Part shown: one piece after another, positions 17,810 to 39,938 of the stretch
Layout of the letters: each line of letters opens with the position of its first letter
How positions within the stretch are numbered: position 1 is the first letter of the stretch
DNA from: Desulfobacterales bacterium
GTDB taxonomy: Bacteria > Desulfobacterota > Desulfobacteria > Desulfobacterales > JAFDMD01
Direction of reading: 5' to 3'
NCBI GenBank assembly: GCA_029939135.1
Contig: JAOZTP010000001.1
Location: forward strand, 1-45,905
DNA length: 45,905 bases
Program-made: the position numbers and the translations under genes
The notes under the pieces: generated by a model
Seen by the model: only the letters and a program-made list of their open reading frames with translations
What the model was told of the DNA's origin: nothing
Database searches by the model: none

Positions 17810-19123
17810 ATGGCAAAACATGCAACGCCTTTGTTAGATCAGCTCGAATCGGGTCCTTGGCCCAGTTTTGTTTCGGACTTAAAACAGGAAGCTGAAGTAA
17901 GAGCAAAAAATGAAAAGGGTGTGGAGTATCAAATTCCTCAGGATGTATGCGACGACCTTTTGGGAGTAATGGAACTTTCTTTTAAACAGGGAAGAACTCA
18001 CTGGAAACATGGAGGCATCGTAGGAGTTTTCGGCTATGGCGGCGGAGTTATCGGAAGATATTGCGATCAACCGGAGATGTTTCCCGGAGTTGCTCATTTC
18101 CATACTATGCGTATAAATCAGCCGGGCGGCAAATTTTATAATACAAAATTTTTGAGAGAATTGTGCGATTTATGGGATTTAAGAGGTAGCGGACTTACTA
18201 ATATGCATGGTTCTACCGGCGATATTGTTCTGCTCGGAACAACCACTCCGCAGTTGGAAGAAATTTTTCATACCATAACTCATGATATGAATCAGGATCT
18301 CGGCGGTTCAGGCTCCAACTTAAGAACTCCTGCCGATTGTATCGGAGCGGCTCGCTGCGAGTATGCATGCTATGATACTCAGGCTTTATGTTATGACCTT
18401 ACTATGGAATATCAGGACGAACTTCATCGTCCGGCATTCCCATACAAATTTAAATTTAAATTCGACGGCTGCCCCAACTGCTGCGTAGCCTCGATTGCGC
18501 GTTCGGATATGTCTTTTATCGGAACATGGAAAGACGATATAAGAATAGACGAAAAAGCGGTAGCCGCTTATGTAGGTGGAGAAATTCCTCCTAATGCAGG
18601 CGCTCATTCCGGACGGGACTGGGGTAAATTCAATATAGTAAAAGAGGTTATCGATCTTTGTCCTACCAAGTGTATGCGTTATGAAGGCGGAAAACTTTCT
18701 ATCAATACAAAAGAATGCACGAGATGTATGCACTGCATTAATGTTATGCCTCAGGCTTTAAGAATAGGAAACGACAGAGGAGTTTCAATTCTTGTAGGCG
18801 CAAAAGCTCCTATTTTAGACGGCGCTCAAATGGGATCTCTACTTGTTCCTTTTATTAAGGTTGAAGAGCCTTATGACGAAATAAAAGAGGTTATAGAGGC
18901 TATCTGGGATTGGTGGATGGAAGAAGGCAAAAATCGCGAAAGACTCGGCGAGTTGATAAAACGACAGGGCTTCCAGAAACTGCTTGAAGCTACCGGTATT
19001 AAGCCAATGCCTCAGCATGTAAAAGAGCCGCGATCCAATCCGTATATCTTCTGGAAAGAAGAGGAAGTGGACGGCGGATGGCAGCGCGATATTAACGAAT
19101 TCAGAAAACACCATCAAAGATAG
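17810..19123 (+). CDS. dsrA: Dissimilatory sulfite reductase, alpha subunit
   Basis: N-terminus [28 protein letters not shown] is typical of DsrA. Siroheme/FeS Cys clusters and a ferredoxin-like insert [12 protein letters not shown] are present. Confidence 0.95.
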
Positions 19124-19137
19124 AGGAGATAATAGAA

Positions 19138-20286
19138 ATGGCATTTATATCTTCAGGCTATAATCCTGACAAACCGATGGAAAATAGAATTACAGACATC
19201 GGACCCAAAAAATATGACGAATTTTATCCTCCGATAATCAAAGCTAATAAAGGCAAATGGAAATATCATGAGATTCTTGAGCCCGGAGTTTTGGTTCACG
19301 TATCGGAGACCGGAGATAAAGTATTTACCGTTCGGTGCGGGGGCGCTCGTCTTATGAGCATAACCCATATCCGAGAAATGTGCGATATAGCGGATAAACA
19401 CTGCGGCGGGCATCTTCGTTTTACAACCAGAAACAATATCGAATTTATGACCGATAGTCTTGATAAGGCAAACGCTTTAAAACAAGACCTTGAAAGTAGA
19501 AAATTTGCAGGCGGAAGTTTTAAGTTTCCCGTAGGCGGAACAGGCGCAGGAATTACCAATATAGTTCATACACAGGGTTGGATACACTGCCATACGCCGG
19601 CTACAGACGCATCAGGTCCGGTAAAAGCGGCTATGGACGTTTTATTCGACGATTTCAAAAGCATGAGACTACCGGCTCATCTGCGCGTATCTTTGGCATG
19701 CTGCCTTAATATGTGCGGAGCGGTTCACTGCTCCGATATAGCCATTTTGGGCTATCACAGAAAACCTCCGATGTTAGATCATGAATATCTTGATAAAATG
19801 TGCGAAATCCCTTTGGCTATCGCAGCATGTCCTACGGCTGCCATCAAACCCGCGAAAGTGGAATTGCCAAACGGAAAAACCGTAAAGAGCGTAGCGGTTA
19901 AGAATGAAAGATGTATGTTCTGCGGAAACTGCTATACAATGTGTCCGTCTATGCCATTGGCTGACGACGTAGGAGACGGTATAGTTCTTATGGTAGGCGG
20001 TAAAGTTTCAAATAGAATCAGCGCTCCTAAGTTTTCCAAAGTAGTTGTCGCTTTTATTCCAAATGAAGCTCCAAGATGGCCTACAACTACGGCAACCATT
20101 AAAAAAATCGTAGATATTTATGCAAAGGACGCTAATAAATACGAACGTCTCGGCGAATGGGCGGAAAGAATTGGATGGGAAAGATTTTTTGATAAATGCG
20201 AAATTGATTTTACGCATCATCTCATTGACGATTTTCGTGATCCTGCATATTATACTTGGAGACAAACTACACAGTTTAAATTTTAA
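19138..20286 (+). CDS. dsrB: Dissimilatory sulfite reductase, beta subunit
   Basis: [23 protein letters not shown]..., Cys clusters [18 protein letters not shown] and [12 protein letters not shown]. It immediately follows dsrA. Confidence 0.95.
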
Positions 20287-20294
20287 TCATATAT

Positions 20295-20329
20295 TATGAG
20301 CTGGAGTTTTATAAAAACTCCAGCTCATA
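20295..20329 (+). other. 16-bp perfect stem-loop between dsrB and dsrD
   Basis: TATGAGCTGGAGTTTT-ATA-AAAACTCCAGCTCATA, followed by TATTTTAATAA. It starts 9 nt after the dsrB stop. Confidence 0.55.
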
Positions 20330-20355
20330 TATTTTAATAAACGGAGATAAATAAA

Positions 20356-20598
20356 ATGGATACAGAAGCGGGAGAAAAAAAAATTCTTGAGTTTCTTGAA
20401 AAAAAGTCAAAATCAAAATCAAAATTTTACCTTAAAGATTTTAATGCTCTTTTCCCGGAAGATAAGCCTCGCGCAGTTAAAAATTTGGCTAATGATATGG
20501 TAAAAAAAGAGATTCTTGAGTATTGGTCAAGCGGAAGCACCACTTTGTATGGCAAAAAAGGAGCCGGCAAACAGGCTGCCGCAGAGCATGAAGATTAA
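20356..20598 (+). CDS. dsrD: DsrD
   Basis: 80 aa with the conserved YWSSGSTTLYG motif. It sits directly after dsrAB. Confidence 0.85.
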   Translation: MDTEAGEKKILEFLEKKSKSKSKFYLKDFNALFPEDKPRAVKNLANDMVKKEILEYWSSGSTTLYGKKGAGKQAAAEHED

Positions 20599-20610
20599 TA
20601 ATAACAATCA

Positions 20611-22035
20611 ATGAACCTTACTGAAGAGCTGCAAAAAAAGAGCGCTCTTGTTGTTCCGAGAATAATTATTGCAGCTCTTAAAGGCGGATCCGGAAAAACC
20701 ATTTTTTCTGTAGGTATAGCCGCAGCTTTAAAAGAGAGCGGCAAATCGGTGGCGGTATATAAAAAAGGTCCGGATTATATTGACGCCGGATGGCTTGCGC
20801 TTGCCGCAGATAAGCCATGTTACAATCTTGATAATTTTCTCATTTCCAATCATCAGATCAAAAATTCTTTCATATCAAAGAGTCATAATGCCGATATAGC
20901 GATTATCGAAGGCAATAGAGGTATTTTTGACGGACTTGATACAGACGGTACAACCAGCACCGCAGGGCTTGCAAAACTGCTTGATGCGCCGGTTATATTA
21001 TGTCTTGACTGCACAAAAACCACTAGAACCATAGCCGCTGTTCTTTACGGCTGTTTGATGTTCGACCCGAATTTAAAAATAAAAGGGGTAATATTAAACA
21101 GAGTGGGGGGCGCGAGACACGAACAGATTATTCGGAAATCAATTGAAAAATATTGTAAAATTCCGACGCTCGGCGCAATTCCGAAATTAAAAAAGGAGGC
21201 GTTTCCGGAACGCCATATGGGGCTTGTGCCTACGCAGGAACATGAATGGGCGGAAAGCTCAATTCAATCCGTTTTATCCGTTGTAAAAAAGTATATAGAT
21301 ATAGATAAAATTATAGCTATAGCCAAAGATACTTCCAAACTAATCATTGATAACGACATTGAACATAAAACCCATCCCGTCAAAGTTGCCTCCAAACATA
21401 AAATAGGAATAATAAGAGATTCCGCTTTTCAGTTTTATTACCAGGAGAATCTTGACGCTCTTTGCGCTTATGGAGCTGATATAGTTTTTATAAGCCCTTT
21501 AAAAGACGCCGACATATCAGACGAAATATCGGCTCTTTATATAGGAGGAGGTTTTCCGGAAACTCATGCCGCATATTTGGCGGCAAATAACAGCTTTAAA
21601 AATAAGATAAAGCTATTTGCCAAAGCCGGAATGCCTATTTACGGGGAATGCGGCGGGCTGATGTATTTAAGCGAATCGGTTAGAATTGAGGACGCTATAT
21701 ATCCTATGACCGGAGTTTTGCCAATTCAATATTCCTTTTCCAAAAGGCCGGCGGCTCACGGATATACTATAATTAAGGTTCAAAAAGATAATCCCTACTT
21801 TAAAAAAGGAATGATCATAAAGGGACATGAGTTTCATTATTCAAAAGTTGAAAAATGTAACGTAGAGGAGGAATCGCTTGCCTTTGACATGACAAGAGGG
21901 GTAGGATTAATTAATAAAAAAGACGGAGCCTGTTACAAAAACGTTCTCGGAACATATACGCATATACATTCCGCAGGAAATCCGGTTTGGGCGGAATCTA
22001 TGGTAAAACTTGCCGTAAACTATTCAAAAAAATAA
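20611..22035 (+). CDS. dsrN: Cobyrinic acid a,c-diamide synthase homolog; in this context DsrN (siroheme amidase)
   Basis: N-terminal ATP-binding region GGSGKT and a C-terminal GATase-1 domain with GECGGLMYL. It follows dsrD, as in dsrABDN loci. Confidence 0.8.
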   Translation: MNLTEELQKKSALVVPRIIIAALKGGSGKTIFSVGIAAALKESGKSVAVYKKGPDYIDAGWLALAADKPCYNLDNFLISNHQIKNSFISKSHNADIAIIEGNRGIFDGLDTDGTTSTAGLAKLLDAPVILCLDCTKTTRTIAAVLYGCLMFDPNLKIKGVILNRVGGARHEQIIRKSIEKYCKIPTLGAIPKLKKEAFPERHMGLVPTQEHEWAESSIQSVLSVVKKYIDIDKIIAIAKDTSKLIIDNDIEHKTHPVKVASKHKIGIIRDSAFQFYYQENLDALCAYGADIVFISPLKDADISDEISALYIGGGFPETHAAYLAANNSFKNKIKLFAKAGMPIYGECGGLMYLSESVRIEDAIYPMTGVLPIQYSFSKRPAAHGYTIIKVQKDNPYFKKGMIIKGHEFHYSKVEKCNVEEESLAFDMTRGVGLINKKDGACYKNVLGTYTHIHSAGNPVWAESMVKLAVNYSKK

Positions 22036-22075
22036 AACCCTTGCACAACTTTTTTGTTGTACAAGGGTTTTATTA
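22034..22075. terminator. Bidirectional intrinsic terminator between dsrN and cytochrome c3
   Basis: AAAACCCTTGCACAAC-TTTTTT-GTTGTACAAGGGTTTT, with A/T runs on both sides. Confidence 0.6.
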
Positions 22076-22096
22076 CCTTATTTAACCTTATCTTAT

Positions 22097-22549
22097 TTAG
22101 CTGGCTTTAGGATGACAACCTGTGCAAGTGGTAGGAGCCGCTTTAGTGCTATTCTTTTTATTATAAACTTTATGGCATTTTTTGCATTTGGCATGCATAG
22201 CTTCGGCATGATATTGTAGCTTTTCTGCCGGCGTAAGTTTCGGAGCATTTTTGCCTTTTGGTTTTTCTCCGGGTTTATTATGGCATGCTATACAATTTTG
22301 CACATCGTCTCCCATTTTCAGATCAAGAGAAGCTCCCTTATCGTCATGATGGCAGTCGCCGCATTTTAAATCGCGTTCTTCGGCATGTTTTTTATGCTGA
22401 AATTCGCATATGCTTTTTTTATGCTCGGTATAAGCTTTATTCTCCATTTTAATTGCGTCTTCAACCGTCGAGCCTGCAAAAAGACCCGCAGAGATAAAAA
22501 AGCTTACAAAAAATAGGGCGCCTGCAAGTAAAGATAGTTTTTTCTTCAT
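22097..22549 (-). CDS. Periplasmic tetraheme cytochrome c3
   Basis: Signal peptide and four CxxCH motifs (CGDCH, CIACH, CKKCH, CTGCH) in 150 aa, with extra His residues available as sixth ligands. Confidence 0.85.
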   Translation of the reverse strand: MKKKLSLLAGALFFVSFFISAGLFAGSTVEDAIKMENKAYTEHKKSICEFQHKKHAEERDLKCGDCHHDDKGASLDLKMGDDVQNCIACHNKPGEKPKGKNAPKLTPAEKLQYHAEAMHAKCKKCHKVYNKKNSTKAAPTTCTGCHPKAS

Positions 22550-23940: not shown

Positions 23941-24999
23941 ATGTATAAAGAGGATATTCGTAACTTAATCCAACAATCGCCGCTGGAAATTGATACCGAA
24001 ATTAAAATGAGCGGACATCCGCCTACTATGGCAAGTTCGGCATTTCTTATAAATAAAGAGCAGGGGGATTGGGCTGAAAAAATTGTTTTTAAGGCAATTA
24101 ATGAATACTCAAACGATTATTTCGCTATTGAATATGGACGATCCGAATCTATAGCCGCCGGCGACAAAGGGTTTGCTGATTTTTATATGGAATATCAAAA
24201 AGAACTTAATACAATAGGTAAAAGACCGGATATTTTGATATTTAAGGTAAGCGATTTTCCGGATAAAATTATTGATGTTGAAAATGACAACCATATAAGG
24301 CAAGCGGTTGCCGCGCTTGAGGTTAGATCAAGCTCATTTCTATCGAATAAATATGCCGCATTTATGAAAAAAAGACAGCGAATGGCTATTGAAAAATGTA
24401 TTGAAATTAAAAAAGCTATTATCGGTAGCCATCTTGGCGCTTTATTAGAACGCAAAAATGAAATTATCTACAATCTTATATTAAACGCTCATAACGACAC
24501 TTTTAAAGAATTGGATTTTCGAAGTCCTTCTTGGTCATTAACAAAAGAATTAAGAGAGTTGACAACACTATTAAAAAATATAAAAGAAAATATAAAGATA
24601 TTACATAAACGAGATTATTTAAGTATTACGCCGAAAATGGAAGATATTGCCCTCGTGAACAGATGGATACAGCACTATAATGTTAAACATTTTTATCTGC
24701 AGGTATTTTTTGACAAAGCATATATAATATTATTTAAAGATATTTTAACTTTGGTTTCGAATGATAACAACGATGGCAATACTTTTTCAATAGAACGGGA
24801 TATTAAAAATCAGAGAAAAACAACAATAAAGATAAATGTGCAAATCGGCAAAGAGGCGCTTGGAAAAATAGATATGCCCAAACATAAATCCGCGATGAAA
24901 GAGTTAGATAGAGGGCGACTGTTGTTTTATGTAACTTTTGAAGGAGGCAAAGGGTATCTTGATAATGAAATATTTATAAAAGATGTAATCAATGCTTGA
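23941..24999 (+). CDS. Putative type II restriction endonuclease (family unassigned)
   Basis: 8-nt overlap with the downstream methyltransferase. Possible PD-(D/E)xK-like core GKRPDILIF...AALEVRSS, where ExR stands in place of ExK. No other motif was recognised. Confidence 0.4.
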   Translation: MYKEDIRNLIQQSPLEIDTEIKMSGHPPTMASSAFLINKEQGDWAEKIVFKAINEYSNDYFAIEYGRSESIAAGDKGFADFYMEYQKELNTIGKRPDILIFKVSDFPDKIIDVENDNHIRQAVAALEVRSSSFLSNKYAAFMKKRQRMAIEKCIEIKKAIIGSHLGALLERKNEIIYNLILNAHNDTFKELDFRSPSWSLTKELRELTTLLKNIKENIKILHKRDYLSITPKMEDIALVNRWIQHYNVKHFYLQVFFDKAYIILFKDILTLVSNDNNDGNTFSIERDIKNQRKTTIKINVQIGKEALGKIDMPKHKSAMKELDRGRLLFYVTFEGGKGYLDNEIFIKDVINA

Positions 25000-26533
25000 A
25001 TCGAAATATATAAAAGAAACGCCGCTTAATTACAGAAAAAATTACGGCCAATTTTTTACGCCGTCTTCAGTAGCTCGTCTTATGGTGAAATGGGTTTTAA
25101 GAGATAATCCGAAAACAATATTAGATCCTGCCTTTGGATTAGGCGTTTTTTACGATGAAACAATAAAGATAAAACCGAACAGTCAGATTTTTTTTTCGGG
25201 ATATGAGATAGATAATCGTATTATAAATTTTTTTAACTATCACGCGAACAATTTTAATTGTAGAGTTAATAATCAAGATTATCTCCAAACGGAAGCAGGT
25301 TTTTTTGACGGTATTATTTGTAATCCGCCGTATATGCGATTTCAAAAATTTCTTAACCGTCATCAAATATTGCCGAAGATTGAAAAGAAAATCGGCAAAA
25401 AACTTGTGGGATACGTAAATATTTCATCTGTGTTTTTACTTAAGTCTTTAAAAGAACTTAAAGTAAACGGTAATTTGGCATATATTATGCCATTTGAATT
25501 TTTCAATGCGGGTTATGGAAAACAAATCAAAAAATTTCTCCTTGATAACAATTTTTTAAAACAGATAGTAATATTTTCAAATGAAAAAGAGATTTTTCCG
25601 GAGGCAATAACAACCGTTTGTATGCTTCTTTGTAAAAACGACGGAAAACAGAATAGTATAAAAATAACAATTATCAATACAAATGAAGAGATTGAAAAGA
25701 TAGCCGATATAAGTAATTTCTATCAAAAAGAGATACCCCCTTCCGATTTGCCATATAATAAAAAGTGGACGCCTCTAATATTATCATTATTTTCCGAGCA
25801 AAAGATTCCGGACGATTTTTCTGTAATATCTTCTTACGGCACTTTTAGCAGAGGAATTGCTACAGGCGCAAACGTTTTTTTTTCGCTTACAAAGTCAGAA
25901 ATTGAAAAATGGAAGTTAGACGGCAATAACTTATGCAAGTGTATTACAAAAAGTTTTCAAATAAAAAAGCCGTTATTTACAGAGAGCGATTTTAATATAT
26001 TATACAAAGCAGACAAGCCGGTACATTGTTTAGACGTAAAAAAAATTGATAATCAACAAGTAATAGAATATATAAAAGAAGGAGAGAAATTAGGTTATCA
26101 CCAAAGATATCTTACAAAAAAAAGAAATACTTGGTATAAAATTGAAAATAGAAAACCCGCTCCGATTTTGTTCGGCGTTTTTAACAGAGGAAGATTAAAA
26201 GTAATACGAAATTTTACCACAGCAATAAACTTTACATGTTTTCATTCTTTTTATCCGAATATGTACGGGCAGCAACTTGTGAATAAGTTATTTATTTATT
26301 TAATCAGCGAAATAGGGCAAAGTATCATAAAAAACAATAAACGAAGCTATGGAGACGGATTAGACAAATTTGAACCGGGCGACTTAAACGACGGCTTATG
26401 TCCGAATCAAAAACAATTTGAAATGATCGGCGAGCAAGATGTTAGAAAAGTGATTAATCTTATTAATGAAGATGAAAAAGCGGCAATTCAAATCAGTAAC
26501 AATTTGATTGAAAAAATTATAAACGCCTCATAA
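24992..26533 (+). CDS. N6-adenine DNA methyltransferase, gamma class (Eco57I/TaqI-like)
   Basis: Motif I ILDPAFGLGVF precedes motif IV ICNPPYMRF. A long C-terminal region is consistent with a target-recognition domain. Confidence 0.8.
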   Translation: MLESKYIKETPLNYRKNYGQFFTPSSVARLMVKWVLRDNPKTILDPAFGLGVFYDETIKIKPNSQIFFSGYEIDNRIINFFNYHANNFNCRVNNQDYLQTEAGFFDGIICNPPYMRFQKFLNRHQILPKIEKKIGKKLVGYVNISSVFLLKSLKELKVNGNLAYIMPFEFFNAGYGKQIKKFLLDNNFLKQIVIFSNEKEIFPEAITTVCMLLCKNDGKQNSIKITIINTNEEIEKIADISNFYQKEIPPSDLPYNKKWTPLILSLFSEQKIPDDFSVISSYGTFSRGIATGANVFFSLTKSEIEKWKLDGNNLCKCITKSFQIKKPLFTESDFNILYKADKPVHCLDVKKIDNQQVIEYIKEGEKLGYHQRYLTKKRNTWYKIENRKPAPILFGVFNRGRLKVIRNFTTAINFTCFHSFYPNMYGQQLVNKLFIYLISEIGQSIIKNNKRSYGDGLDKFEPGDLNDGLCPNQKQFEMIGEQDVRKVINLINEDEKAAIQISNNLIEKIINAS

Positions 26534-26609
26534 ATGGAGCAATCGCTCCTTTTCATGATTTTATATCTTTATATTTTAAATAATAAAGATAGAAAAAGCA
26601 GGATAAAAA

Positions 26610-28889
26610 ATGCAACACAACCTTCTTGATACAATAGGGAACACTCCGATTGTAGAAATAAAAAAATTAAATCCGAATCCTAATGTAAAGATATTTGCAA
26701 AATTAGAATATATGAACCCGGGCGGCTCAATTAAGGATAGGATTGCTTATTCTATGATATTAGACGGAGAAAAGAAAAAAAGCTTAACGCCGGATAAGAT
26801 TGTTATTGAAGCCACAAGTGGAAATACGGGAATAGGGCTTGCTTTGGTTTGCGCGGTCAAAGGGTATAAGCTTATGATAGCGATGCCGGAAACTGCAAGC
26901 GAAGAACGAAAGCAGATATTAAAAGCTATGGGGGCGGATCTTATTCTTACTCCAGGAGCGTTGGGAACCGACGGAGCGATAGAAGAGGTTTATAATATTG
27001 CGAGAGAAAAGCCGAATCTTTATTTTATGACGGACCAATTCAATAGTCCGGCAAACTGGCAGGCTCACTATTATGGGACCGCAAATGAAATATGGGAACA
27101 AACGGAACAAAAGATAACAATGTTGGTCGCTACAATGGGAACTACCGGAACGGTTATGGGATTATCAAGAAGATTAAAGGAGCTTAATAATAGTATAAAA
27201 ATTATAGGGGTAGAGCCTTATTTGGGGCATAAGCTTCAGGGTTTAAAAAATATGAAAGAGGCTTATTGTCCCGAATTATACGAAAAGGGGCGGCTTGATA
27301 CAAAGATTAATATAGACGACGACAAAGCTTTTGAAATGACAAAACGTCTTGCAAAAGAGGAGGGCTTATTTGTAGGAATGAGCAGCGGAGGCGCTTTAAG
27401 CGTAGCGCAAAAAGAGGCTGAAAAGATGGAAAGCGGGGTTATAACGGTTATTTTTCCGGACGGCGGAGAAAGATATTTAAGCGCTAATCTTTTTACTCCG
27501 AAAGCGAAGACAAATATAAAGCTTTTCAATACGATATCCGGCAAAAAAGAGAGATTTATCTCTATAAAGACGGATGAAGTATCCGTATATTCTTCCGGTC
27601 CTGCAGTATTTTCAAAGCTTGATTTGGGGGAATGCAGGCGTTATGTTTTTGCGGATATTATTTGCAGATATTTTAAATTTTTAAATTTCGAAGTAAAGCA
27701 TATAATAGATATTACGGATATGGACGATAAAACAATAGAAGGCTCTTCAAATGAAAATATGCTTTTATCCGATTTTACGCAAAGAAATATAGAATCGTTT
27801 AAACGGGATTTGAAAATATTAAATATTTGCCCCGCATCAGATTATCCGAAGGCTAGCGAGCATATACAAGATATGATAGACCTTGCGAAAAAGCTTGTTG
27901 AAAAGGGTTTTGCTTACGAAAAATTACGCTCCTTATATTTTGATATTTCGAGATGTAAAGAATACGGCAAGCTATCCCGCATAAATCTTGATAAAATAAA
28001 AATAGGCGCAACGGTTGATTTGGATAGTTACGAAAAGAATAATCCGAAAGATTTTACTTTGTTTAAGCGAGCAAAACTATCCGAATTAAAGCGAGGAATA
28101 TACGCAAAAACGGACTGGGGAAATGTTCGTCCTTCTTGGCATATACAATCAGCCGCAATAGCCGCAAAATATTTGGGAGAAACTTTCGATATACATATAA
28201 GCGCAAAAAATTTTATATTTCCTCATCATGAAAATAAGATTGCCATAGCCGAAAGCGCTACGGGCAAGCTTCCGGCAAAATACTGGGTGGACTGCGATAA
28301 GGTTATGTTTAACGGTAAAAAAACGGATAAAGGAAATAATTTTCATACCGTAGAGGAGCTGTTAAAACAAGGATATACCGGTGAGGAAATAAGATACTGG
28401 CTTATGGCGACCCATTACGGAAAGCCTATAGTATTATCCGCCGAAAGACTTGATTACCGAAAAAGAGCGCTGCAAAGGATGAATCGATTTATTGCGTCTC
28501 TTATAAATATCAAAGGGGGCGAGACTTATCCTGAAACGGAGCAACTTTGCTATGATATAAAAAATGATTTTATATCGGCTATGGACGATGATTTAAACGT
28601 ATCTGCGGCGTTAGCCTCTATTTTTATAAATATTAAAAAAATAAATAAATTAACTTTAGATAAAAAGCTTGATAAATCGGACGCCGAAAAGATTATAACG
28701 GTATTTGAAAAGATAAATACCGTTTTGCAGATATTTGATTTGGATAAAAAGGTTTATAACGAAAATATAGAGGCTTTAATAAAGAAACGGGAAGAAGCGA
28801 GAAGAAATCAGGACTGGGACGCCGCCGATAAAATAAGGGAAGAGCTTAAAAGTATTGGCGTTAATATATTCGATAAAAAAATCGGATAA
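26610..28889 (+). CDS. Fusion protein: cysteine synthase (CysK/CysM-type, PLP) joined to a CysRS-like domain with degenerate catalytic motifs
   Basis: The first ~295 aa carry GGSIKDR (PLP Lys), TSGNTGIGLA, GTTGT and SSGG. From IKLFNTISGKKERF onward the protein is colinear with CysRS (ITDMDDKTI, FPHHENK, and a C-terminal IEALIKKREEARRNQDWDAADKIREEL). Confidence 0.8.
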   Translation: MQHNLLDTIGNTPIVEIKKLNPNPNVKIFAKLEYMNPGGSIKDRIAYSMILDGEKKKSLTPDKIVIEATSGNTGIGLALVCAVKGYKLMIAMPETASEERKQILKAMGADLILTPGALGTDGAIEEVYNIAREKPNLYFMTDQFNSPANWQAHYYGTANEIWEQTEQKITMLVATMGTTGTVMGLSRRLKELNNSIKIIGVEPYLGHKLQGLKNMKEAYCPELYEKGRLDTKINIDDDKAFEMTKRLAKEEGLFVGMSSGGALSVAQKEAEKMESGVITVIFPDGGERYLSANLFTPKAKTNIKLFNTISGKKERFISIKTDEVSVYSSGPAVFSKLDLGECRRYVFADIICRYFKFLNFEVKHIIDITDMDDKTIEGSSNENMLLSDFTQRNIESFKRDLKILNICPASDYPKASEHIQDMIDLAKKLVEKGFAYEKLRSLYFDISRCKEYGKLSRINLDKIKIGATVDLDSYEKNNPKDFTLFKRAKLSELKRGIYAKTDWGNVRPSWHIQSAAIAAKYLGETFDIHISAKNFIFPHHENKIAIAESATGKLPAKYWVDCDKVMFNGKKTDKGNNFHTVEELLKQGYTGEEIRYWLMATHYGKPIVLSAERLDYRKRALQRMNRFIASLINIKGGETYPETEQLCYDIKNDFISAMDDDLNVSAALASIFINIKKINKLTLDKKLDKSDAEKIITVFEKINTVLQIFDLDKKVYNENIEALIKKREEARRNQDWDAADKIREELKSIGVNIFDKKIG

Positions 28890-28919: not shown

Positions 28920-28944
28920 GGATTTTGCGCAAAGCGTAAAATCC
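28920..28944. terminator. Hairpin between the convergent cysK-cysS-like gene and the usp gene
   Basis: GGATTTTGCGC-AAA-GCGTAAAATCC (11 bp with one G-U pair), followed by CTTTATTCTTTTA. Confidence 0.5.
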
Positions 28945-28954: not shown

Positions 28955-29839
28955 TTATTTATTGAGGCTGATAACAGGGCAGCCGGAGCGAATGATTATT
29001 TGTTCCATGTTAGAGCCGAAACCTTTGTTTTCTTTATTATGATGCGCCATAATTATTAAGGAAAAATCTTTTTCCCGAGCATACTTTACTATTTCGACAT
29101 ACGGAATTCCTTCACAAACATGCGCCGACGCTTTTATAGTATTGCTATCTCGTTGAATGTATTTTGCATCTATATTTTTGTAAGCTTCAAGCATTTTTGT
29201 CTCTATTTCTTCCTGATTGATTATAGCTTTTGAAAAAACGGGGTTGATATCCACAACATTAAAAATATTCAGTTTGCAGTTGAGAAATTTTGCAAGATTA
29301 ACTGTAAAATCAAAAGCCGCATCTGATGCTTTTGAAAAATCCACGCAAAAGAGAATGCCTGATATATTTTTTAAAAAAGAGGGACTCGGACGGCATAAAA
29401 CCATAACCGGAATATTTGCGGCTTGAGCTACTCTTAACACTGTAGAGCCAAGCATATGTTTTTTATATGCCGAAAATTTTTCTTTAGAAGTTCCGCCGAG
29501 AGCTACAAGATCGTAAGTTTCGTCTTTAATCTCTTTTAAAATTTCGCGGTAAGGCATGCCTGCCGTAATCTTAATATCAAAGCTTTTTACTTTTTTAAAC
29601 TGAGCGGCATAGTAAATTTTCATCTCTTCTTTGACCCAAGACGTATATTCTTTACTTATTTCAACTTTTTCGCCGGTTTTTACGTCTATTATCTCTTGGC
29701 TGAAACCGCGAGACGGAACGCCCGCTACATGAAAAACGGTTATATGAGCATTAGTGAAATTGGCAAGTCGAAAAGCCGATTTAGCCGCATTATCGCAAGC
29801 ATGAACCGCGGATGTTGCGAGTAGAATTTTTTTAAACAC
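28955..29839 (-). CDS. Tandem universal stress protein (2 x USP domains)
   Basis: Two repeats of the USP pattern (KKILLATS...VFHV and GILFCVDFS...IFNVVD). The likely start is the GTG at 29839, 6 nt after AAGGAGG. The track ORF extends to 29869. Confidence 0.75.
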   Translation of the reverse strand: MFKKILLATSAVHACDNAAKSAFRLANFTNAHITVFHVAGVPSRGFSQEIIDVKTGEKVEISKEYTSWVKEEMKIYYAAQFKKVKSFDIKITAGMPYREILKEIKDETYDLVALGGTSKEKFSAYKKHMLGSTVLRVAQAANIPVMVLCRPSPSFLKNISGILFCVDFSKASDAAFDFTVNLAKFLNCKLNIFNVVDINPVFSKAIINQEEIETKMLEAYKNIDAKYIQRDSNTIKASAHVCEGIPYVEIVKYAREKDFSLIIMAHHNKENKGFGSNMEQIIIRSGCPVISLNK

Positions 29840-29861
29840 AATTGCCTCCTTTTGTACATGT

Positions 29862-29885
29862 CTTGTCAAGCGAAGCGAGAATTAT
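29862..29885. repeat. Half copy (one arm) of the palindromic repeat, copy C
   Basis: GTCAAGCGAAGCGAGAATT matches the right-arm core TCGAGCGAAGCGAGAAAT. Confidence 0.35.
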
Positions 29886-29905
29886 TTTTATAAAGGTCAT
29901 GTATT

Positions 29906-31294
29906 TTATGACGCAGGTTTCATAGATTCCGGAATTTCAACCATATTGACAAGTAGAGGTTTTAAGAATGACCAGTTGATTCCCATTTTAAATACCTCTT
30001 CAATATCTCTTATTGCATCCCAGCAGTTGTGGCATGGCGTAAGAACCAGTTTTGCGCCGGTTTTAATTATTTGATCCCGTTTTATAGTAAATCCTTTATT
30101 ACGCCAGTCTCTGTAAAGTCCGATTCCATTAAAGCCGCCTCCGCCTCCGCAGCAAAAATTATTTTCTCCGTTCGGCTCCATGTCGACAAAATATCCAGGT
30201 TCCACCATATAACCGATTATTTCTCTTGTAATATCTTTTAATCCGCCGTTGCGGACATAATTGCATGAATCTTGAATTGTAACCGGCGTTTTTATACGTT
30301 TTTCGGGATTGATTTTAAGTTTTCCGGTTCGCAAAGCTTCCGCAATCCATTCTACATAGTGGATTGATTCTACGGGCGGTTTACCGTCTTTTCTTCCCAT
30401 CCAGTATGGTCCTTCTATAACGGTTGCCCTATGGGCATGTCCGCATTCGGTTCCTATCATTCTTTTCGGTTTTAAACGCTCCATTGCTTCATAAACTTGT
30501 TTAACTTGTATTTTACAGGCTTCCCAGTCTCCCGCAAACATTGCCAAACTTGTTTCTTCCCATCCTTTGGAAGTAACCGTCCAGTTTTCCCCTGCAAGAT
30601 GAAAAAGTATTGCGGCATAAGCCAAATCTTCGGGATAATGTTTTACCTCTCTTGCGTTAATGGTGTACAATATATCCGCATTTTTAACGTCAACCGGAAT
30701 TTTAAGATTCGGATAGTCCTCTTCATATTCTTCGGCTATCCACTCGAAAGTTTCTATAAACTCTTCGTCCGTTACATCCATTTGCGCATAATATATTCTG
30801 TGCATTCCTGCGCCTATTTTCATTTCCCAAGGAACAAAACCTTGCAGGTATAATAATCCCCGTAAATAGCTAAACATTGCTCCGGTATCTATTCCATTAG
30901 GACAATACATGGCGCATCTGTTGCAGCAGGTGCATTTTCCCCAAGCGACGTCCATAGTCGTTCGCATAAACGCATTATCAACTTTTCCTTTACGCCTAAC
31001 TATTTCTCCGAGCGTTGATTGTATTTTATATGAAGGAACTTGCGTTGGATCTTTGTCGTTTGCAAGATAAAAAAAGCAGCTTTCCGCGCACATGCCGCAG
31101 CGCGAGCATATTTCAAGCCATGTTTTTATTCTGGATTTTAAAGTTGTTCTAATTGTTTTCCATAAAAGATCCGTATCGACCTCCAGATCTTGCATTTGTT
31201 TATAATATAGTTTGCCGCTGGTATCTTTAAGAAGCGTCCGAAGCTGTTCTTTTGTTTTAACTGGTTCTTTAGAACATAGTTTGCCGGAACACAT
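29906..31294 (-). CDS. HdrD/DsrK-like cytoplasmic Fe-S protein with CCG domains
   Basis: Two ferredoxin-type clusters ([23 protein letters not shown]) plus the CCG signature [10 protein letters not shown] and TPCHNC. The start at 31294 follows AAGGAG. The track ORF has a 32-codon upstream extension. Confidence 0.8.
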
Positions 31295-31444
31295 AATATT
31301 ATTTCTCCTTATTGAATCTTTTCCTCCGGTTAAAGTCCGCCTTCTAACTTCGTAGCTTGTCCGTTTTTCGCAAGCATTAAAAAGGAACAAATTATTTTGT
31401 TATGCAACGGGCTTTTAATCATTGTTTTTCTGATTAAATGTTTT

Positions 31445-32128
31445 TTACCAATTAATCCCTCTTTTCGATTTCATTCCTCCCCTTTTAATTCCGTAATCCA
31501 TACCAAGCTGAATTCTGGAGGCAAAAAATAAAACGAAATGAGATAATTTTGTAAATGGAGCGGCTATTAATAAAGCCTCGCCGCATATTATATGGAAATA
31601 AAGCCAAAACAGATAGTTTCCGACTTCATATCTTGCACAAAGTCCGGTTATAAAAGGAGCGACGGATAGAAATAGTATAAAATAGTCGGATTTTTTTGTT
31701 AAAATTTTTGCTTGAGGTAAAACAAGGCGTCTGATTGTCAGCATAACTGCGCCTATAATAACGAGCCAAGATAATATATCAGTCGTCAATTGATTAAGGG
31801 TAAAGGGTAAAGATATGCATATTTTGCTTCTGATAAAAATATTATGCGCCAGCCCGAAAAAGGGAACTATAACCGCTCCTATATGAAAAGCAAAGAATGC
31901 TATTGTCATAAAAGACTGTTGACGCCATCCATGCGTTAAAAAAGGAATCATCCATTTAAAAACCGATTTTAAGGCGCCTTTAATTCCGTAAAACGGATAT
32001 GCTTTATAAGCTACTCGGTCAAGCCGCCAATCTAATCCTTTGAAATATAGAATAAATCTAACAAATAATCCTATAAAAAAAATGGAGACCGAAATCCAGA
32101 ACATAAATCCGGTTAAAAACTTATACAT
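31445..32128 (-). CDS. NarI/DsrM-like integral membrane cytochrome b subunit
   Basis: 227 aa with about 5 hydrophobic helices and conserved His residues. It sits between the cytochrome c and the DsrK-like protein. Confidence 0.7.
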   Translation of the reverse strand: MYKFLTGFMFWISVSIFFIGLFVRFILYFKGLDWRLDRVAYKAYPFYGIKGALKSVFKWMIPFLTHGWRQQSFMTIAFFAFHIGAVIVPFFGLAHNIFIRSKICISLPFTLNQLTTDILSWLVIIGAVMLTIRRLVLPQAKILTKKSDYFILFLSVAPFITGLCARYEVGNYLFWLYFHIICGEALLIAAPFTKLSHFVLFFASRIQLGMDYGIKRGGMKSKRGINW

Positions 32129-32163
32129 TGTTTCCTCCGCTTATTATTTTGCCAAGCGCTGCC

Positions 32164-32901
32164 TTATTCCGTATCCTTTTTATGGCATCCTTTGCAGGTT
32201 ATTGGAGCTGTTTTCGCTTTTGACAAATCAAGATGGCAGTTTATACAAGCGGTATGAGAAACATAAGCAAGCGAATTTTTATGGAACGATTCTTTTTCAT
32301 TATGACACTCGATGCAACTATTCTCCTCGCCTTCTATGTATAAGGTTTTATTAAGAGTATTATCATAAGTATGATGACATGCAGCGCAATTATCGTCGTA
32401 TGTTTCGGAAGCTTTTATCAACGGAGATGTTTCGTGTATATCGTGAAGCGAATCATAAAAAGATAGAGGCGGTTGAGGAGATGTAAAATTTATTTTTTCA
32501 TTATGGCATAAGCGGCATTCGCCGTTTATAGGACCTTTTTTTTTACCTGAAATTTTGTCGTGGCAGCCTATGCAGTTATTATGGTATAAATCCATATTCG
32601 TTGTGTTATCGGCTGCTTTTTTTAATCCGAATATAAATTTATTCTCTTTTTTATTATGGCATACGGCGCAATCATTTTTTATTTGTAGCTTTTCGGTATG
32701 AAGATCATGAAGAAAAAAAACCGCCGGCATTTTCGGAACGGTTTCTTCCACAGGCGCTTTTATTATAATAATATCGGAACGATTATTATAATTTATAATA
32801 TCGGCAAATAAATCTCCGCTTCCGAAGATAATAAGAAATATATATAATAAAAACGAATAAATAATTTTAAATTTCTTTTTAAGACATAAATTTTTTAGCA
32901 T
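32164..32901 (-). CDS. Periplasmic multiheme cytochrome c (7 CxxCH)
   Basis: Motifs CAVCH, CIGCH, CRLCH, CAACH, CIECH, CINCH and CKGCH, plus an N-terminal hydrophobic signal or anchor. Confidence 0.85.
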   Translation of the reverse strand: MLKNLCLKKKFKIIYSFLLYIFLIIFGSGDLFADIINYNNRSDIIIIKAPVEETVPKMPAVFFLHDLHTEKLQIKNDCAVCHNKKENKFIFGLKKAADNTTNMDLYHNNCIGCHDKISGKKKGPINGECRLCHNEKINFTSPQPPLSFYDSLHDIHETSPLIKASETYDDNCAACHHTYDNTLNKTLYIEGEENSCIECHNEKESFHKNSLAYVSHTACINCHLDLSKAKTAPITCKGCHKKDTE

Positions 32902-34808: not shown

Positions 34809-35522
34809 TTACCCGCCCAAGTAAGCTTTTTTAACTTCGGGATTGGTTAGAAGCGCTTCGGACTTTTCTTCCAAAACTAATTTGCCGTTTTCAATAACGT
34901 ATCCGCGGGTTGCGAATTTTAAGGCGAGTCTTGCATTTTGCTCTACCAAAAGTATGGTGGTTCCGGCTTTGTTTATTTCTTTTAAAGCCTCGAACATAGA
35001 AAGCATCAAAATGGGCGCTAAACCCATAGAGGGTTCGTCTAACAGCATTATTTTTTTTGCGCTTACATAGGCTCTGCCTACTGCGAGCATTTGTTGTTCT
35101 CCGCCGCTTAATGTGCCGGATATTTGATTTTTTCTCTCTTCTAATCTCGGAAATATTCCGAATACGGTCTTTATATCTTTTTTTATGTTATTTTTGTTTT
35201 TTCTGGCAAAGGCGGCAAGTTTAAGGTTTTCGGTTATGGTAAGGTTGCCGAATAGGCGTCTTCCTTCCGGCACATGAGATATGCCGAGTTTTGAAACGAC
35301 TTTATCCGGCTGATATAAAAGCAGGTTTTGTCCTTCAAACTCCATAACTGTTCCGGGCAGCGCTGGGACCATACGGGATATTGCCCGCAAAATTGTGCTT
35401 TTCCCTGCTCCGTTTGCCCCTATTATGCAGACTCGCTCCCCTTGTTCTATTTGAAAATCTATTCCATGCAAAGCAGTTATTTTATCATATGCTACTTTTA
35501 GGTTTTTTACTATCATCTGCAT
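34809..35522 (-). CDS. livF: Branched-chain amino-acid ABC transporter, ATP-binding protein LivF
   Basis: Walker A GANGAGKST, signature LSGGEQQML, Walker B LLDEPS, and the characteristic C-terminal end ...NPEVKKAYLGG. Confidence 0.9.
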   Translation of the reverse strand: MQMIVKNLKVAYDKITALHGIDFQIEQGERVCIIGANGAGKSTILRAISRMVPALPGTVMEFEGQNLLLYQPDKVVSKLGISHVPEGRRLFGNLTITENLKLAAFARKNKNNIKKDIKTVFGIFPRLEERKNQISGTLSGGEQQMLAVGRAYVSAKKIMLLDEPSMGLAPILMLSMFEALKEINKAGTTILLVEQNARLALKFATRGYVIENGKLVLEEKSEALLTNPEVKKAYLGG

Positions 35523-35819: not shown

Positions 35820-36449
35820 TTATATAAAAAGTTGTTTTAGAAATTGTTTTATATCTTGAAAACATTGATGCTCAAAATTCCAATATCCTTTTAATGCTCC
35901 AAGCCCGAGAGAGTTTTTTATAGGAGAACAAGATGCCAAGTATGCTTGAACGCGGGCTTTCGGATCATTATACTTTTTTTTCTCTTCCTCTTTTTGATCA
36001 GCCTGAAAGCATTCGATATAATTTTGAATGCAGCCGTTTATAGGTTCGTCTTTAATAGTTTGCAAACATAGGTTTTCGAGCATTCCGGCTACTTTGTTAT
36101 CCGGCATTATATAAACGCCTATTTTAAAACCTTGTTTTTCCGTAACTTGATTCGGTTTGTCCGGCGTCGGCAATTCTTTTTTTTTTAATATGCCGCAAAT
36201 GCTTTGAAATGCGGATTGAGCGGGCTTTTCTTCCGCGTCTCTAACAAAGCCGAGTTGTTTTATTCGCTTGAATCCTTCGCCTATGTAAAGGGCGTCAAAT
36301 TTATCGGCAAATTGATCCTTGCCGCCTATATCTACAAGCTGAACATGTTTTATATCTAAATATTTTAATAACGCTTTAAAAAAATTGCATTCATCCTTAC
36401 CTTCTACCGCAAGAAGATTATTCGATTCTATTTTAAAATTTTTGCCCAT
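35820..36449 (-). CDS. Small Toprim-like protein (DUF4276/DUF3226/DUF4435-style partner of ABC ATPases)
   Basis: 209 aa. The N-terminal beta-strand plus Glu motif is NLLAVEGKDECNFFKALL. A later acidic motif is LGFVRDAEE. The start overlaps the ATPase stop (TAATG). Confidence 0.5.
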   Translation of the reverse strand: MGKNFKIESNNLLAVEGKDECNFFKALLKYLDIKHVQLVDIGGKDQFADKFDALYIGEGFKRIKQLGFVRDAEEKPAQSAFQSICGILKKKELPTPDKPNQVTEKQGFKIGVYIMPDNKVAGMLENLCLQTIKDEPINGCIQNYIECFQADQKEEEKKKYNDPKARVQAYLASCSPIKNSLGLGALKGYWNFEHQCFQDIKQFLKQLFI

Positions 36450-37492
36450 TAGCGCGCCTCAAAATTTTTTTCGATACCGGCTTCTAAAGCCCGAGCGGAA
36501 GCCGAATAAGCTTTATGGTTTTCTCCGTCTTTATCTAATCTGTAAAGACGTATATCGTCTCCTTGCGGCTCTATTTCGGCATAAGCGTTTGAAAGGGCTT
36601 CGATGGCTTCGTAAGAATGAGTGGTTGCTATTAATTGAACGTTATATGCTTTGCAAGCCGTTAAAATAGCGTTCCAAGCTGTTTTTAAGGATGAATAATG
36701 CAAACCGTTTTCTATTTCGTCTATTAAAACGATGCCGTTTTTTTTTTCCGCAATAGCGGTTAAGAACGCGAGTATTCTACGCATTCCATCCCCCATTATA
36801 TTAATAGGCAATAGATGATTTCCGCCTACGTCAATATAGATAATCCCTTTTGCTCCAATTCTTATATCGGTAATATTAGGTTCAATTTTTTGTAAAACCG
36901 AAATAATAGTATCAAGCTTTTTTTGCACCGTTAGGTTTTCCAATGCTTCTGTTATAGACGGTTCTGTTTTAGACGGCAGATATACGCAATTTAAAGTTTC
37001 TTTGGGCGACGCCACGGATGTATTTTTGTTTAAGCTGTATTTTCCTTCGTAAACCAACTCGTTTTGATGATTACGACAATCAAGTTTTATGCCGTCAACA
37101 GCGTTGCCGGAATCGGTCGAAGCAGCGTAATTATATAAAGAAACCTCCGATTTTTCAAATTTTTGGGCGCTTTCATCTGCATAAATGGGAGTAATTGTTA
37201 AGTTCCGTTTCCTATCATCTATCGTCCCTCTTAAAACAATTTCGTTTTGGAAGTTTAAATCTTTAAACATAAAGCTAAACTCTTGATCTTTTGTTATAGG
37301 GAAACCTCGAAATTTATGTATTTTAACCGGCAGCGTAGCGTTAGACATCCCTGAAAGCAGAAAAACTGCTTCAAGAACCGAAGTTTTACCGCAATTATTG
37401 CGTCCTACCAAAAGGTTTACCCATTTTAGGTCGTCTATTTTAAGCTTTTTTATTCCTCTGAAATTTTCTATTGTAAGGGATTGATATTGCAT
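36449..37492 (-). CDS. ABC/SMC-like AAA ATPase (AAA_15/AAA_21 type)
   Basis: LTIENFRGIK...LLVGRNNCGKTS (Walker A), MGDGMRRIL, IVLIDEIENGLH (Walker B/D-loop) and ATTHS (H-loop). Confidence 0.8.
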   Translation of the reverse strand: MQYQSLTIENFRGIKKLKIDDLKWVNLLVGRNNCGKTSVLEAVFLLSGMSNATLPVKIHKFRGFPITKDQEFSFMFKDLNFQNEIVLRGTIDDRKRNLTITPIYADESAQKFEKSEVSLYNYAASTDSGNAVDGIKLDCRNHQNELVYEGKYSLNKNTSVASPKETLNCVYLPSKTEPSITEALENLTVQKKLDTIISVLQKIEPNITDIRIGAKGIIYIDVGGNHLLPINIMGDGMRRILAFLTAIAEKKNGIVLIDEIENGLHYSSLKTAWNAILTACKAYNVQLIATTHSYEAIEALSNAYAEIEPQGDDIRLYRLDKDGENHKAYSASARALEAGIEKNFEAR

Positions 37493-37778: not shown

Positions 37779-38552
37779 TTAGGTTATATCCTCTTTGCCG
37801 AGATACGCCTCTATAACCTGCGGGTTATTTTGTATTTGCTCCGGAGTTCCTTCGGCTATTACCTCTCCGAATACCAAAGTTTGTATTGTTTCGCAAAGTT
37901 CCATTACAAATTTGAGTCTGTGTTCTATTAAAAATATGGCTACGTTAAATTCTTTTCGGACGTTTTTTATTATTTGTATCATTCGGATTAACTCTTCGGG
38001 GGTCATTCCCGCGGTAGGCTCGTCGAGAAATAGAACTTTCGGCTTTATAGCCATAGCTCTTGCCATTTCCACTCTTCGTTGAGCGCCGTAAGGAAGGTTA
38101 ACCGCAAGCATGTTTGCAAAGTCGGATATATCGAAGATTTCCATGAGCCTGCGGGCGCTTTCCTCTATTTCCGCTTCCTGTTTGCGTCGTTTTTTTGTTC
38201 CGAAAAAGGAGCCTATAAGTCCGTAGTTGATTTGCGAATAATGGGCTATTTGTATATGATCGAAAACCGTTAAATGTCTCCATAATAAAAGGTTTTGGAA
38301 TGTCCTGCCAAGTCCTTTTGAGGCTATTTGATGCGGAAAGAGTCCTGTTATTTCTTCTTTATCAAGCTTTACGCTGCCTTCGGAAGGCTTGAATATTCCG
38401 GTGATGAGGTTGAATACGGTTGTTTTTCCGGCGCCGTTGGGTCCTATTAAGCCTTGTATTTTATTTTTTTCAAGATTAAGGTTGTAGTTGTGAACCGCCC
38501 TTAAACCGCCGAAAAAATGGGTCATATTTTCTACTTTAAGCAGAGGAGTCAT
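37779..38552 (-). CDS. livG: Branched-chain amino-acid ABC transporter, ATP-binding protein LivG
   Basis: Walker A GPNGAGKTT, signature LPYGAQRRVEMARA, Walker B LFLDEPTAG, and C-terminal NPQVIEAYLG. Confidence 0.9.
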   Translation of the reverse strand: MTPLLKVENMTHFFGGLRAVHNYNLNLEKNKIQGLIGPNGAGKTTVFNLITGIFKPSEGSVKLDKEEITGLFPHQIASKGLGRTFQNLLLWRHLTVFDHIQIAHYSQINYGLIGSFFGTKKRRKQEAEIEESARRLMEIFDISDFANMLAVNLPYGAQRRVEMARAMAIKPKVLFLDEPTAGMTPEELIRMIQIIKNVRKEFNVAIFLIEHRLKFVMELCETIQTLVFGEVIAEGTPEQIQNNPQVIEAYLGKEDIT

Positions 38553-38555
38553 TTT

Positions 38556-39824: not shown

Positions 39825-39893
39825 ATTTTTATATTTAAAATAGAAATTGGGTTAATTTTTATTTGTCATAATATGTTTTGTTTGGACAATTAT

Positions 39894-39930
39894 GAGTTTT
39901 CTCCTCGCCTCGCTTTTCGAAATGGCAAGC
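39894..39930. repeat. Half copy (left arm) of the palindromic repeat, copy F
   Basis: GAGTTTTCTCCTCGCCTCGCTTTTCGAAATGGCAAGC, in the livH-livM spacer. Confidence 0.4.
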
Positions 39931-39938
39931 GGGAAGAA

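Follow-up and report, generated by a model that had tools for sequence, protein, structure and literature searches.

Why would a bacterium keep, fused to the enzyme that makes cysteine, almost the whole body of a cysteinyl-tRNA synthetase (CysRS) in which every catalytic feature has gone? This question is raised by one open reading frame (ORF) in a 45,905-nucleotide stretch of Desulfobacterales DNA (contig JAOZTP010000001.1; 'the window' hereafter means this whole stretch), whose product begins as a cysteine synthase of the CysK/CysM type, dependent on pyridoxal phosphate (PLP), and continues as a CysRS homologue. The answer that we favour, and to which we give about an even chance, is that the gene encodes a live cysteine synthase carrying a non-catalytic module that binds tRNA-Cys, a reading that draws on which residues the protein family has kept and which it has lost. 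By analogy with HisZ and with the HisRS-like domain of GCN2, such a module would probably be regulatory.

The layout of the gene is well defined. The ATG start is preceded by an AGGA ribosome-binding site, there are no internal stops, and four Pfam domains were recognized along the 759-amino-acid (aa) product. A preliminary description of this DNA, made by eye, had proposed a CysK/CysM domain joined to a full-length CysRS-like body through a linker of about 7 aa, and both the ORF call and the four domains agree with it; the segments that it named in the synthase, GGSIKDR (38-44), TSGNTG (69-74), GTTGT (177-181) and SSGG (258-261), also lie where they were said to lie. The same single-ORF architecture is shared by 195 distinct homologues from independent assemblies, which rules out a frameshift or an assembly chimera at the junction and upholds the view that this is one fused gene and not two separate ones. 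The parts of the gene are as follows.

26610..28889, + strand: whole ORF, comprising the CysK/CysM domain, linker and CysRS-like body (759 aa, ATG start, stop codon included).
26610..27494, + strand: CysK/CysM-type PLP domain, aa 1-295 (PALP match at residues 7-284, E 3e-70; TIGR01136 above cut-off).
26733..26735, + strand: codon of the PLP-binding lysine K42 in GGSIKDR (invariant alignment column).
27495..27515, + strand: linker TPKAKTN, aa 296-302 (7 aa), with an AlphaFold predicted local distance difference test score (pLDDT) <50 at residues 286-299.
27516..28457, + strand: CysRS-like Rossmann fold plus connective-peptide (CP) domain, aa 303-616 (tRNA-synt_1e match at residues 318-616, E 1e-72).
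27594..27596, + strand: S329 at the position of zinc ligand Cys28 (alignment to E. coli CysRS).
27621..27632, + strand: DLGE in place of HIGH, aa 338-341 (alignment to CysRS structures).
28149..28151, + strand: S514 at the position of zinc ligand Cys209, within WHIQS (alignment to CysRS structures).
28194..28238, + strand: HISAKNF...PHHENK, aa 529-543 (GGGxD loop replaced; His234 equivalent to H539; Glu238 replaced by K543).
28320..28334, + strand: KTDKG in place of KMSKS, aa 571-575 (alignment; pLDDT <50 at residues 573-577).
28569..28736, + strand: DALR_2 helical domain, aa 654-709 (Pfam E 2e-9).
28761..28874, + strand: anticodon-binding domain, aa 718-755 (CysS_C match over profile positions 6-43 of 51).

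An AlphaFold2 model of the fusion (mean pLDDT 77.6, predicted template-modelling score (pTM) 0.60) has low confidence at the linker, over residues 436-481 of the CP domain and at the loop that once held KMSKS. Foldseek comparison of the model gives target-normalised template-modelling (TM) scores of 0.85 and 0.75 against the CysRS structures 8qhp and 1u0b, and of 0.77-0.87 against structures of O-acetylserine sulfhydrylase (OASS) and CysM.

The synthase half is predicted to be catalytically intact and should make cysteine, because it passes the cut-off of the cysKM subfamily model TIGR01136 (360.4 bits vs 344.15) and its catalytic residues are invariant: K42, T69-S70-G71, T73-G74, Q143, G177-T178, G180-T181 and S258-G260 do not vary in a 76-sequence family alignment, and N72 is nearly invariant. 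It does not reach the equivalog models for cysM (345 vs 394) or cysK (316 vs 351), and its closest solved relatives are OASS/CysM structures at 40-44% identity. The active-site loop has the short CysM length, and we presume that it resembles the loop of Mycobacterium tuberculosis CysM, an O-phosphoserine sulfhydrylase. The match to M. tuberculosis CysM itself (3dki/3dwg, E 2e-9) falls outside the best matches, and for this reason we make no substrate claim for the PLP domain.

The other half has fared differently. A phmmer alignment to solved CysRS structures, 8qhp (E 8e-86) and E. coli 1li5/1u0b (E 3e-71), runs end to end and is unambiguous around the motifs, and the CysRS-like body is 31-35% identical to canonical bacterial CysRS. 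The HIGH motif (37-40 in E. coli CysRS) corresponds to DLGE 338-341 in the window protein, HGGGSD (224-229) to HISAKN, and KMSKS (266-270) to KTDKG 571-575. Among the zinc ligands, C28 has become S329, C209 has become S514 and E238 has become K543, and only H234 is kept, as H539, so that three of the four are lost. The change of HIGH to DLGE, the loss of KMSKS and the two cysteine-to-serine replacements had all been read by eye in the preliminary description, and the phmmer alignment reproduces them; the third lost ligand, where E. coli PHHENE is matched by PHHENK, had been copied there and passed over without remark. Comparison with the cysS equivalog model TIGR00435, which had been proposed as a check, gives 334.5 bits, below the cut-off of 340.

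Because all three ATP-contact elements are replaced, the CysRS-like body, as far as the alignment can tell, cannot form Cys-AMP in the canonical way and so cannot activate cysteine. With three of four zinc ligands gone, the body in the lineage of the window protein probably no longer binds cysteine either. The earlier expectation was thus right about Cys-AMP, and its suggestion that the domain might still bind tRNA-Cys is made plausible by the conserved anticodon contacts described below; the parallel suggestion that it might still bind cysteine is unlikely to hold. A further idea, that the domain might have acquired a new ligase chemistry in the manner of the CysRS paralogues MshC and BshC, finds no support: the MshC model TIGR03447 scores 158.6 bits against a cut-off of 485.1, and the ATP-pocket binding residues are lost, with acidic substitutes in most of the family.

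That family is large. At least 120 protein clusters, about 760 aa long and built from the same four Pfam domains, were recovered by a protein search, among them those of Desulfonema magnum and D. ishimotonii, and a scan of one genome per species in GTDB found at least 580 genomes with a relative of the fusion. The best 80 of these relatives all cover residues 1-759 at 56-84% identity, and nearly all of their hosts are named Desulfobacterales, a family or genus within that order, or simply Deltaproteobacteria; named hosts include Desulfonema, Desulfosarcina, Desulfatibacillum, Desulfosudis oleivorans, Desulfatirhabdium, Desulfosalsimonas and Olavius symbionts. The closest genome among the matches listed is the metagenome-assembled genome (MAG) 'Deltaproteobacteria bacterium WB1_Bin_3' (84%). 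The phylogenetic survey that the preliminary description had recommended therefore reveals a family centred on Desulfobacterales. We believe that a fusion family with a non-catalytic CysRS body is so far undescribed, and a literature search for a CysK-CysRS fusion or a pseudo-CysRS, with most subscription journals outside its scope, returned nothing relevant.

When the 195 distinct family proteins are aligned to E. coli CysRS (whose numbering is used here), a consistent pattern of loss emerges. The fourth position of HIGH (H40) is Glu in 177 and His in just one, giving a family motif HxGE; the loop of G225-G227 and D229 is mostly T-S-S…E (motif TSSRE), where the window protein has ISAKN; and the KMSKS region is mostly KVDE, with a KMSKS-like motif in 0/195. 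No member has a working HIGH or KMSKS, and acidic replacements are prevalent (H40 to E, D229 to E, S268 to D, K269 to E). The zinc site presents another picture. All four ligands are kept in 141/195 members and at least one is lost in 54/195, in at least ten patterns (SSHK, CSHE, CGHE, CCHK/I/V, YCHV and others); the C28 position is Cys in 186/195 and the C209 position in 172/195, and W205, H206, H234 and T68 are invariant or nearly so. The universal loss of the ATP site and the varied patterns of zinc loss indicate, by this alignment, that the former defines the family and that the latter is secondary and variable in pattern. The zinc ligands appear to be dispensable in the family, because they have been lost in at least ten ways across these 54 members. 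The window lineage is a derived branch that has lost three of them, the only SSHK clade, formed by the window protein with two relatives at 95% (P0001) and 84% (P0002) identity; a protein at 74% (P0003) keeps all four ligands.

A decaying domain might be expected to drift, and this one has not. Between the window gene and its counterpart in WB1_Bin_3 (84% identical), the NG86 method gives a dN/dS of 0.090 over the CysM domain, 0.114 over the catalytic portion of the CysRS-like body and 0.091 over its C-terminal portion, and other pairs give 0.04-0.17. By these ratios the CysRS-like body is still maintained by purifying selection, and values of about 0.1 rule out a decaying pseudogene domain. 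The divergence of the window protein is also evenly spread, since, among positions where conservation across the family is at least 95%, it carries a different residue at 13 of 151 in CysM and at 14 of 119 in the CysRS-like body. Several of the latter border the former active site (C28S, T31A, N66D, and R→K at the position of S228).

The residues that would read tRNA have been treated very differently from those that would bind ATP. In E. coli CysRS, the GCA anticodon is contacted by R427, W432, D436 and R439, as seen in structure 1U0B (PMC13449415), and these correspond to R731, W736, D740 and R743 of the window protein. Across the 195 members, R427 is Arg in 194 (Lys in 1), W432 is Trp in 181 (Phe or Tyr in 14), and D436 and R439 are each conserved in 195/195. 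They lie within the C-terminal 143 residues, the fastest-evolving part of the family (46-58% pairwise identity). Only 12 columns there reach 99% invariance, and three of the 12 belong to the anticodon contacts (hypergeometric p = 0.002). The canonical CP-domain motifs GA(T/R)VD, NPxDF and WG..RP.WH are likewise invariant columns in the family. Because both the anticodon contacts and the CP-domain motifs are conserved, recognition of the anticodon and acceptor stem of tRNA-Cys has probably been retained.

Taken together, these patterns suggest how the protein might work. An active CysM/CysK-type synthase would carry a CysRS-derived module that has given up both cysteine activation and tRNA charging; the CysRS-like body would read the GCA anticodon and the acceptor stem of tRNA-Cys; and the activity or placement of the synthase would be coupled to the state of the tRNA-Cys pool. 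After its catalysis was lost in Desulfobacterales, the synthetase body would thus have been retained as a docking or regulatory device. Given that the cysteine/zinc pocket has decayed in the window lineage, the function of the module there would need no cysteine at that site.

Several observations weigh against this proposal. The family C-terminus is about 8-10 residues shorter than that of canonical CysRS, and the last strand of the anticodon domain is missing family-wide. The pTM of 0.60 and the low-confidence CP domain mean that the model does not fix the relative arrangement of the domains. No canonical cysS was found by tblastn in the 87 fetched loci, to which this search was confined. 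Finally, in most genomes the fusion follows tmk among housekeeping genes and bears the NCBI name cysteine--tRNA ligase, as would be expected of a working cysS. These last points, together with a TIGR00435 cut-off that is nearly reached and a window that likewise contains no canonical cysS, are also the case for a rival explanation, in which the fusion still works as a non-canonical CysRS and is the true cysS of the cell, tied to cysteine synthesis so as to allow channelling. We find this barely credible. HIGH, GGGxD and KMSKS are replaced in 195/195 family members, mostly by acidic residues, and the zinc site that selects cysteine is missing in the window protein. Furthermore, a cysS and an additional cysS* have been reported in Desulfobacterales (Mukai et al., PMC5389517), and canonical CysRS genes of 486-491 aa, in an ispD-ispF-cysS-uvrB context, occur in Deltaproteobacteria MAGs. 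We infer that a separate canonical CysRS is encoded in the same genome. Searches aimed at this gene were uninformative as to the order: one with P0189, a CysRS-containing fusion discussed below, brought back only CysE-CysRS fusions of Nitrospirota and no canonical cysS of Desulfobacterales; one with a Desulfomonile-like canonical protein (P0240) returned labels no finer than Deltaproteobacteria or Desulfobacterota bacterium; and a cluster look-up of ten representatives named no Desulfobacterales. One canonical CysRS (P0479) was considered as the cysS of the window lineage and rejected, as its contigs have 41% GC vs 36% and so belong to another organism.

If the body is not a working synthetase, it might instead sense cysteine, strictly in the manner of HisZ, with the old pocket binding free cysteine through zinc and feeding back on the synthase. 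The retention of four zinc ligands in 141 members, and the near invariance of W205, H206, H234 and T68, would fit such a sensor. However, the window protein lacks C28, C209 and E238 and its module is yet under purifying selection, the many patterns of zinc loss across the family suggest that the site was lost repeatedly, and sensing of cysteine leaves unexplained why the anticodon contacts are the most conserved part of the C-terminus; we consider it quite unlikely. The module might also be no more than a structural relic that binds neither tRNA nor cysteine and is kept only for the folding, solubility or oligomer assembly of the synthase. That every catalytic feature is gone, and that the window lineage has shed the zinc site and both conserved neighbouring genes (see below) while keeping the domain, speak for a relic, which we rate as unlikely: dN/dS of about 0.1 over some 460 residues and invariant, surface-exposed anticodon contacts exceed what a scaffold needs, and free-standing CysK/CysM enzymes fold without such a domain.

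A more demanding alternative has tRNA taking part in catalysis, such that the body docks an aminoacyl-tRNA-Cys (e.g. O-phosphoseryl- or seryl-) and the PLP domain converts the attached residue, as a fold-type-II analogue of SepCysS or in some other tRNA-linked sulfur chemistry. A PLP enzyme of the beta-replacement type, with a short CysM-like loop, is indeed joined here to a module keeping the recognition residues for tRNA-Cys, and a conserved orphan gene next to the fusion (see below) could supply a missing activity. However, there is no sign of a mischarging enzyme, the PLP domain resembles an ordinary OASS acting on free substrates, and neither the 7-aa linker nor the geometry of the model suggests that the two sites face each other. 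Moreover, a text search of the published SepRS surveys found no 'Desulfo', and the sole SepRS-related mention of Deltaproteobacteria that it found is a SepRS-like group from one estuary metagenome. Such catalysis is in our judgement very unlikely. A broader proposal is a tRNA-Cys-dependent sulfur enzyme or sensor of an undescribed kind. The dead synthetase would hold charged or mischarged tRNA-Cys, and the PLP domain, with the orphan partner, would have one of two roles. It would either modify the residue carried by the tRNA, giving bacteria a path to Cys-tRNA-Cys or a modified aminoacyl-tRNA that has no relation to SepCysS, or be switched by the charging state of tRNA-Cys. We regard this broader proposal as improbable, and continue to favour a live synthase with a non-catalytic, tRNA-Cys-binding module.

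How such a protein could have arisen is suggested by a series of related fusions recovered by exhaustive phmmer search over 1.84 billion representatives. At one end, a protein from a Nanoarchaeota MAG (P0131) has CysK fused to a CysRS that is canonical throughout (HIGN, WHLEC, KMSKS, complete C-terminus), and one from a bacterial MAG (P0122, at L088:8001-10352, adjoining surE) is likewise a fusion and combines HLGN, WHIEC and KMSRS with a complete C-terminus. Three others (P0126, P0128 and P0129) have HxGL plus KMSRS. At the other end, several clusters at 50% identity are fully degenerate, and some of these have lost Cys209 too (WHIAA, WHLAA). This graded series from intact to degenerate fusions makes it appear that the fusion is older than the loss of catalysis. 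The family has probably descended from a cysteine synthase fused to a working CysRS, and P0131 and P0122 are possible representatives of the ancestral states of the dead family.

The genes around the fusion provide additional clues. In D. ishimotonii and three MAGs (L002, L005, L006, L007), the order is lptD (on the opposite strand), surE, a gene for a protein with an OB-fold (tRNA_anti-codon) and an HD domain, tmk, and then the fusion; the OB-fold/HD protein is split into two genes in D. ishimotonii. This protein upstream of tmk may resemble YhaM-type 3'-5' exoribonucleases. More broadly, the fusion is immediately preceded by tmk in 61 of the 80 GTDB loci; the median distance between the two genes is about 52 nucleotides (nt), and in some loci they overlap by 4 nt. 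In about 70 of the 80 the fusion is immediately followed, on the same strand, by an orphan gene of about 330 aa whose product starts MKPIYFPFTYIS. This partner evolves quickly (20-53% identity). Neither NCBIfam nor PDB profiles match it, and its Pfam matches are not credible, being scattered, below threshold and confined to one member each. Examples, all on the same strand as the fusion, are:

L007:8867-9862, same strand as the fusion: orphan partner gene.
L001:12511-13521, same strand as the fusion: orphan partner gene.
L002:12363-13283, same strand as the fusion: orphan partner gene.

The window lineage has neither tmk nor the orphan as a neighbour, both being missing from this locus in the window and in WB1_Bin_3; the gene has moved here to a place beside dsrAB. 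Here the fusion gene looks monocistronic and is flanked by terminator-like hairpins upstream (26536-26549) and downstream (28920-28944). No tRNA genes and no Rfam matches were found in the window, so no T-box or riboswitch in it explains how the fusion gene is regulated. In both genomes, the gene sits between dsrA-dsrB-dsrD-dsrN-cytochrome c3 on one side and a tandem Usp together with a DsrMK-like/cytochrome c unit on the other, and these flanking dsr genes mark the host as a sulfate or sulfite reducer. In the window, the two sides are:

17810-22549: dsrA, dsrB, CobB/CobQ-like dsrN and cytochrome c3, on one side of the fusion.
28955-32901: tandem universal stress protein (Usp), DsrK/HdrD-like Fe-S/CCG protein, DsrM-like membrane protein and multihaem cytochrome c.

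Other features of the window are of separate interest. Directly upstream of the fusion, at 23941-26533 on the + strand, is an inserted restriction-modification pair, consisting of a type II restriction endonuclease of the AccI type and an N6-adenine methyltransferase; in the closest relative (L003) this spot is occupied instead by a hydrolase and a DUF4160/DUF2442 pair, and these differing contents indicate that the spot is variable. A two-gene cassette at 35820-37492 (- strand) lies within an operon for a branched-chain amino-acid transporter, with ABC ATPase genes on either side (34809-35522 and 37779-42312). It encodes an AAA_15/AAA_21 ATPase matching AbiLi and PDC-M38A (E 1e-63) and a DUF3226 protein matching PDC-M38B, and it looks like an inserted candidate for anti-phage defence. 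At 8398-12964 (+ strand) come, in order, a RecD2-type helicase, a ResIII/Helicase_C protein that weakly resembles methyl-directed restriction enzymes of type IV, and a 140-aa ORF without a family match.

If our favoured explanation is correct, cysteine synthesis would be tied to the status of tRNA-Cys widely across a major group of marine sulfate reducers, organisms that live in sulfide. There is also a practical consequence for annotation. The label 'cysteine--tRNA ligase' that this family carries is probably wrong. Relatives occur in at least 580 species genomes, and the label could conceal the genuine cysS when metabolism is reconstructed or when a set of aminoacyl-tRNA synthetases is checked for completeness. 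The family further offers a graded evolutionary series, from active fusion through partly degenerate forms to dead proteins with and then without the zinc site, and it points to the conserved orphan partner as a new gene that deserves study.

It is useful to set the fusion beside the systems that it most resembles. Relative to canonical CysRS (E. coli CysS, 1LI5/1U0B), the fusion body has the same order of Rossmann, CP, stem-contact fold, DALR and anticodon-binding domains, and it keeps the anticodon contacts, NPxDF, WG..RP.WH and H234/E236; it differs in lacking HIGH, GGGxD, KMSKS, three of four zinc ligands and the last 8-10 or so residues, and in having gained an N-terminal PLP enzyme. The Nanoarchaeota CysK-CysRS protein has the domain order of the window protein and has kept its motifs and full C-terminus. 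A second kind of fusion, of about 710 aa (P0189 and P0271-P0389), occurs in Nitrospirota/Thermodesulfovibrionales (e.g. Dissulfurispira thermophila) and consists of an N-terminal hexapeptide-repeat serine acetyltransferase (CysE-like) and a canonical CysRS with HIGH and KMSKS. It likewise joins cysteine synthesis to CysRS. Unlike the present family, both kinds retain intact motifs (HIGN or HIGH, WH(I/L)EC and KMSKS) and a full C-terminus, and judging by these features both P0131 and P0189 are presumably active ligases. MshC, the ATP-dependent cysteine ligase of mycothiol synthesis, which has no anticodon-binding domain, is similar as a CysRS paralogue with a role outside translation, and the fusion differs from it by the absence of ATP motifs. 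Within Desulfobacterales, CysRS* lacks the anticodon-binding domain, adjoins selC*-selB* and has been proposed to charge a special tRNA-Cys(UCA) (Mukai et al., PMC5389517). It is, like the fusion, an extra CysRS homologue in the same bacterial order, whereas the fusion has kept the anticodon-binding domain, lost the catalytic motifs and become joined to CysM.

The most instructive comparisons are with synthetases that have left catalysis behind. The present protein is a pseudo-synthetase in the sense that it physically joins a homologue of an aminoacyl-tRNA synthetase, devoid of the catalytic residues, to an enzyme that makes the cognate amino acid. Catalytically dead synthetase paralogues with a regulatory role in metabolism, HisZ and GCN2 among them, form a small and well-studied group. 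HisZ is a class II HisRS paralogue that serves as a separate regulatory subunit of HisG, has no anticodon-binding function and senses free histidine. It is like the fusion in being a catalytically inactive synthetase paralogue physically tied to the enzyme that makes its cognate amino acid; the difference is that the fusion combines a decaying pocket for the amino acid with conserved anticodon-reading residues. The HisRS-like domain of the eukaryotic GCN2 is a dead synthetase fused to a kinase, and it senses uncharged tRNA and binds many tRNAs. The fusion shares with it the attachment of a dead synthetase domain to an enzyme, and the sensing of tRNA, which is established for GCN2, is for the present family a proposal that this analogy makes attractive.

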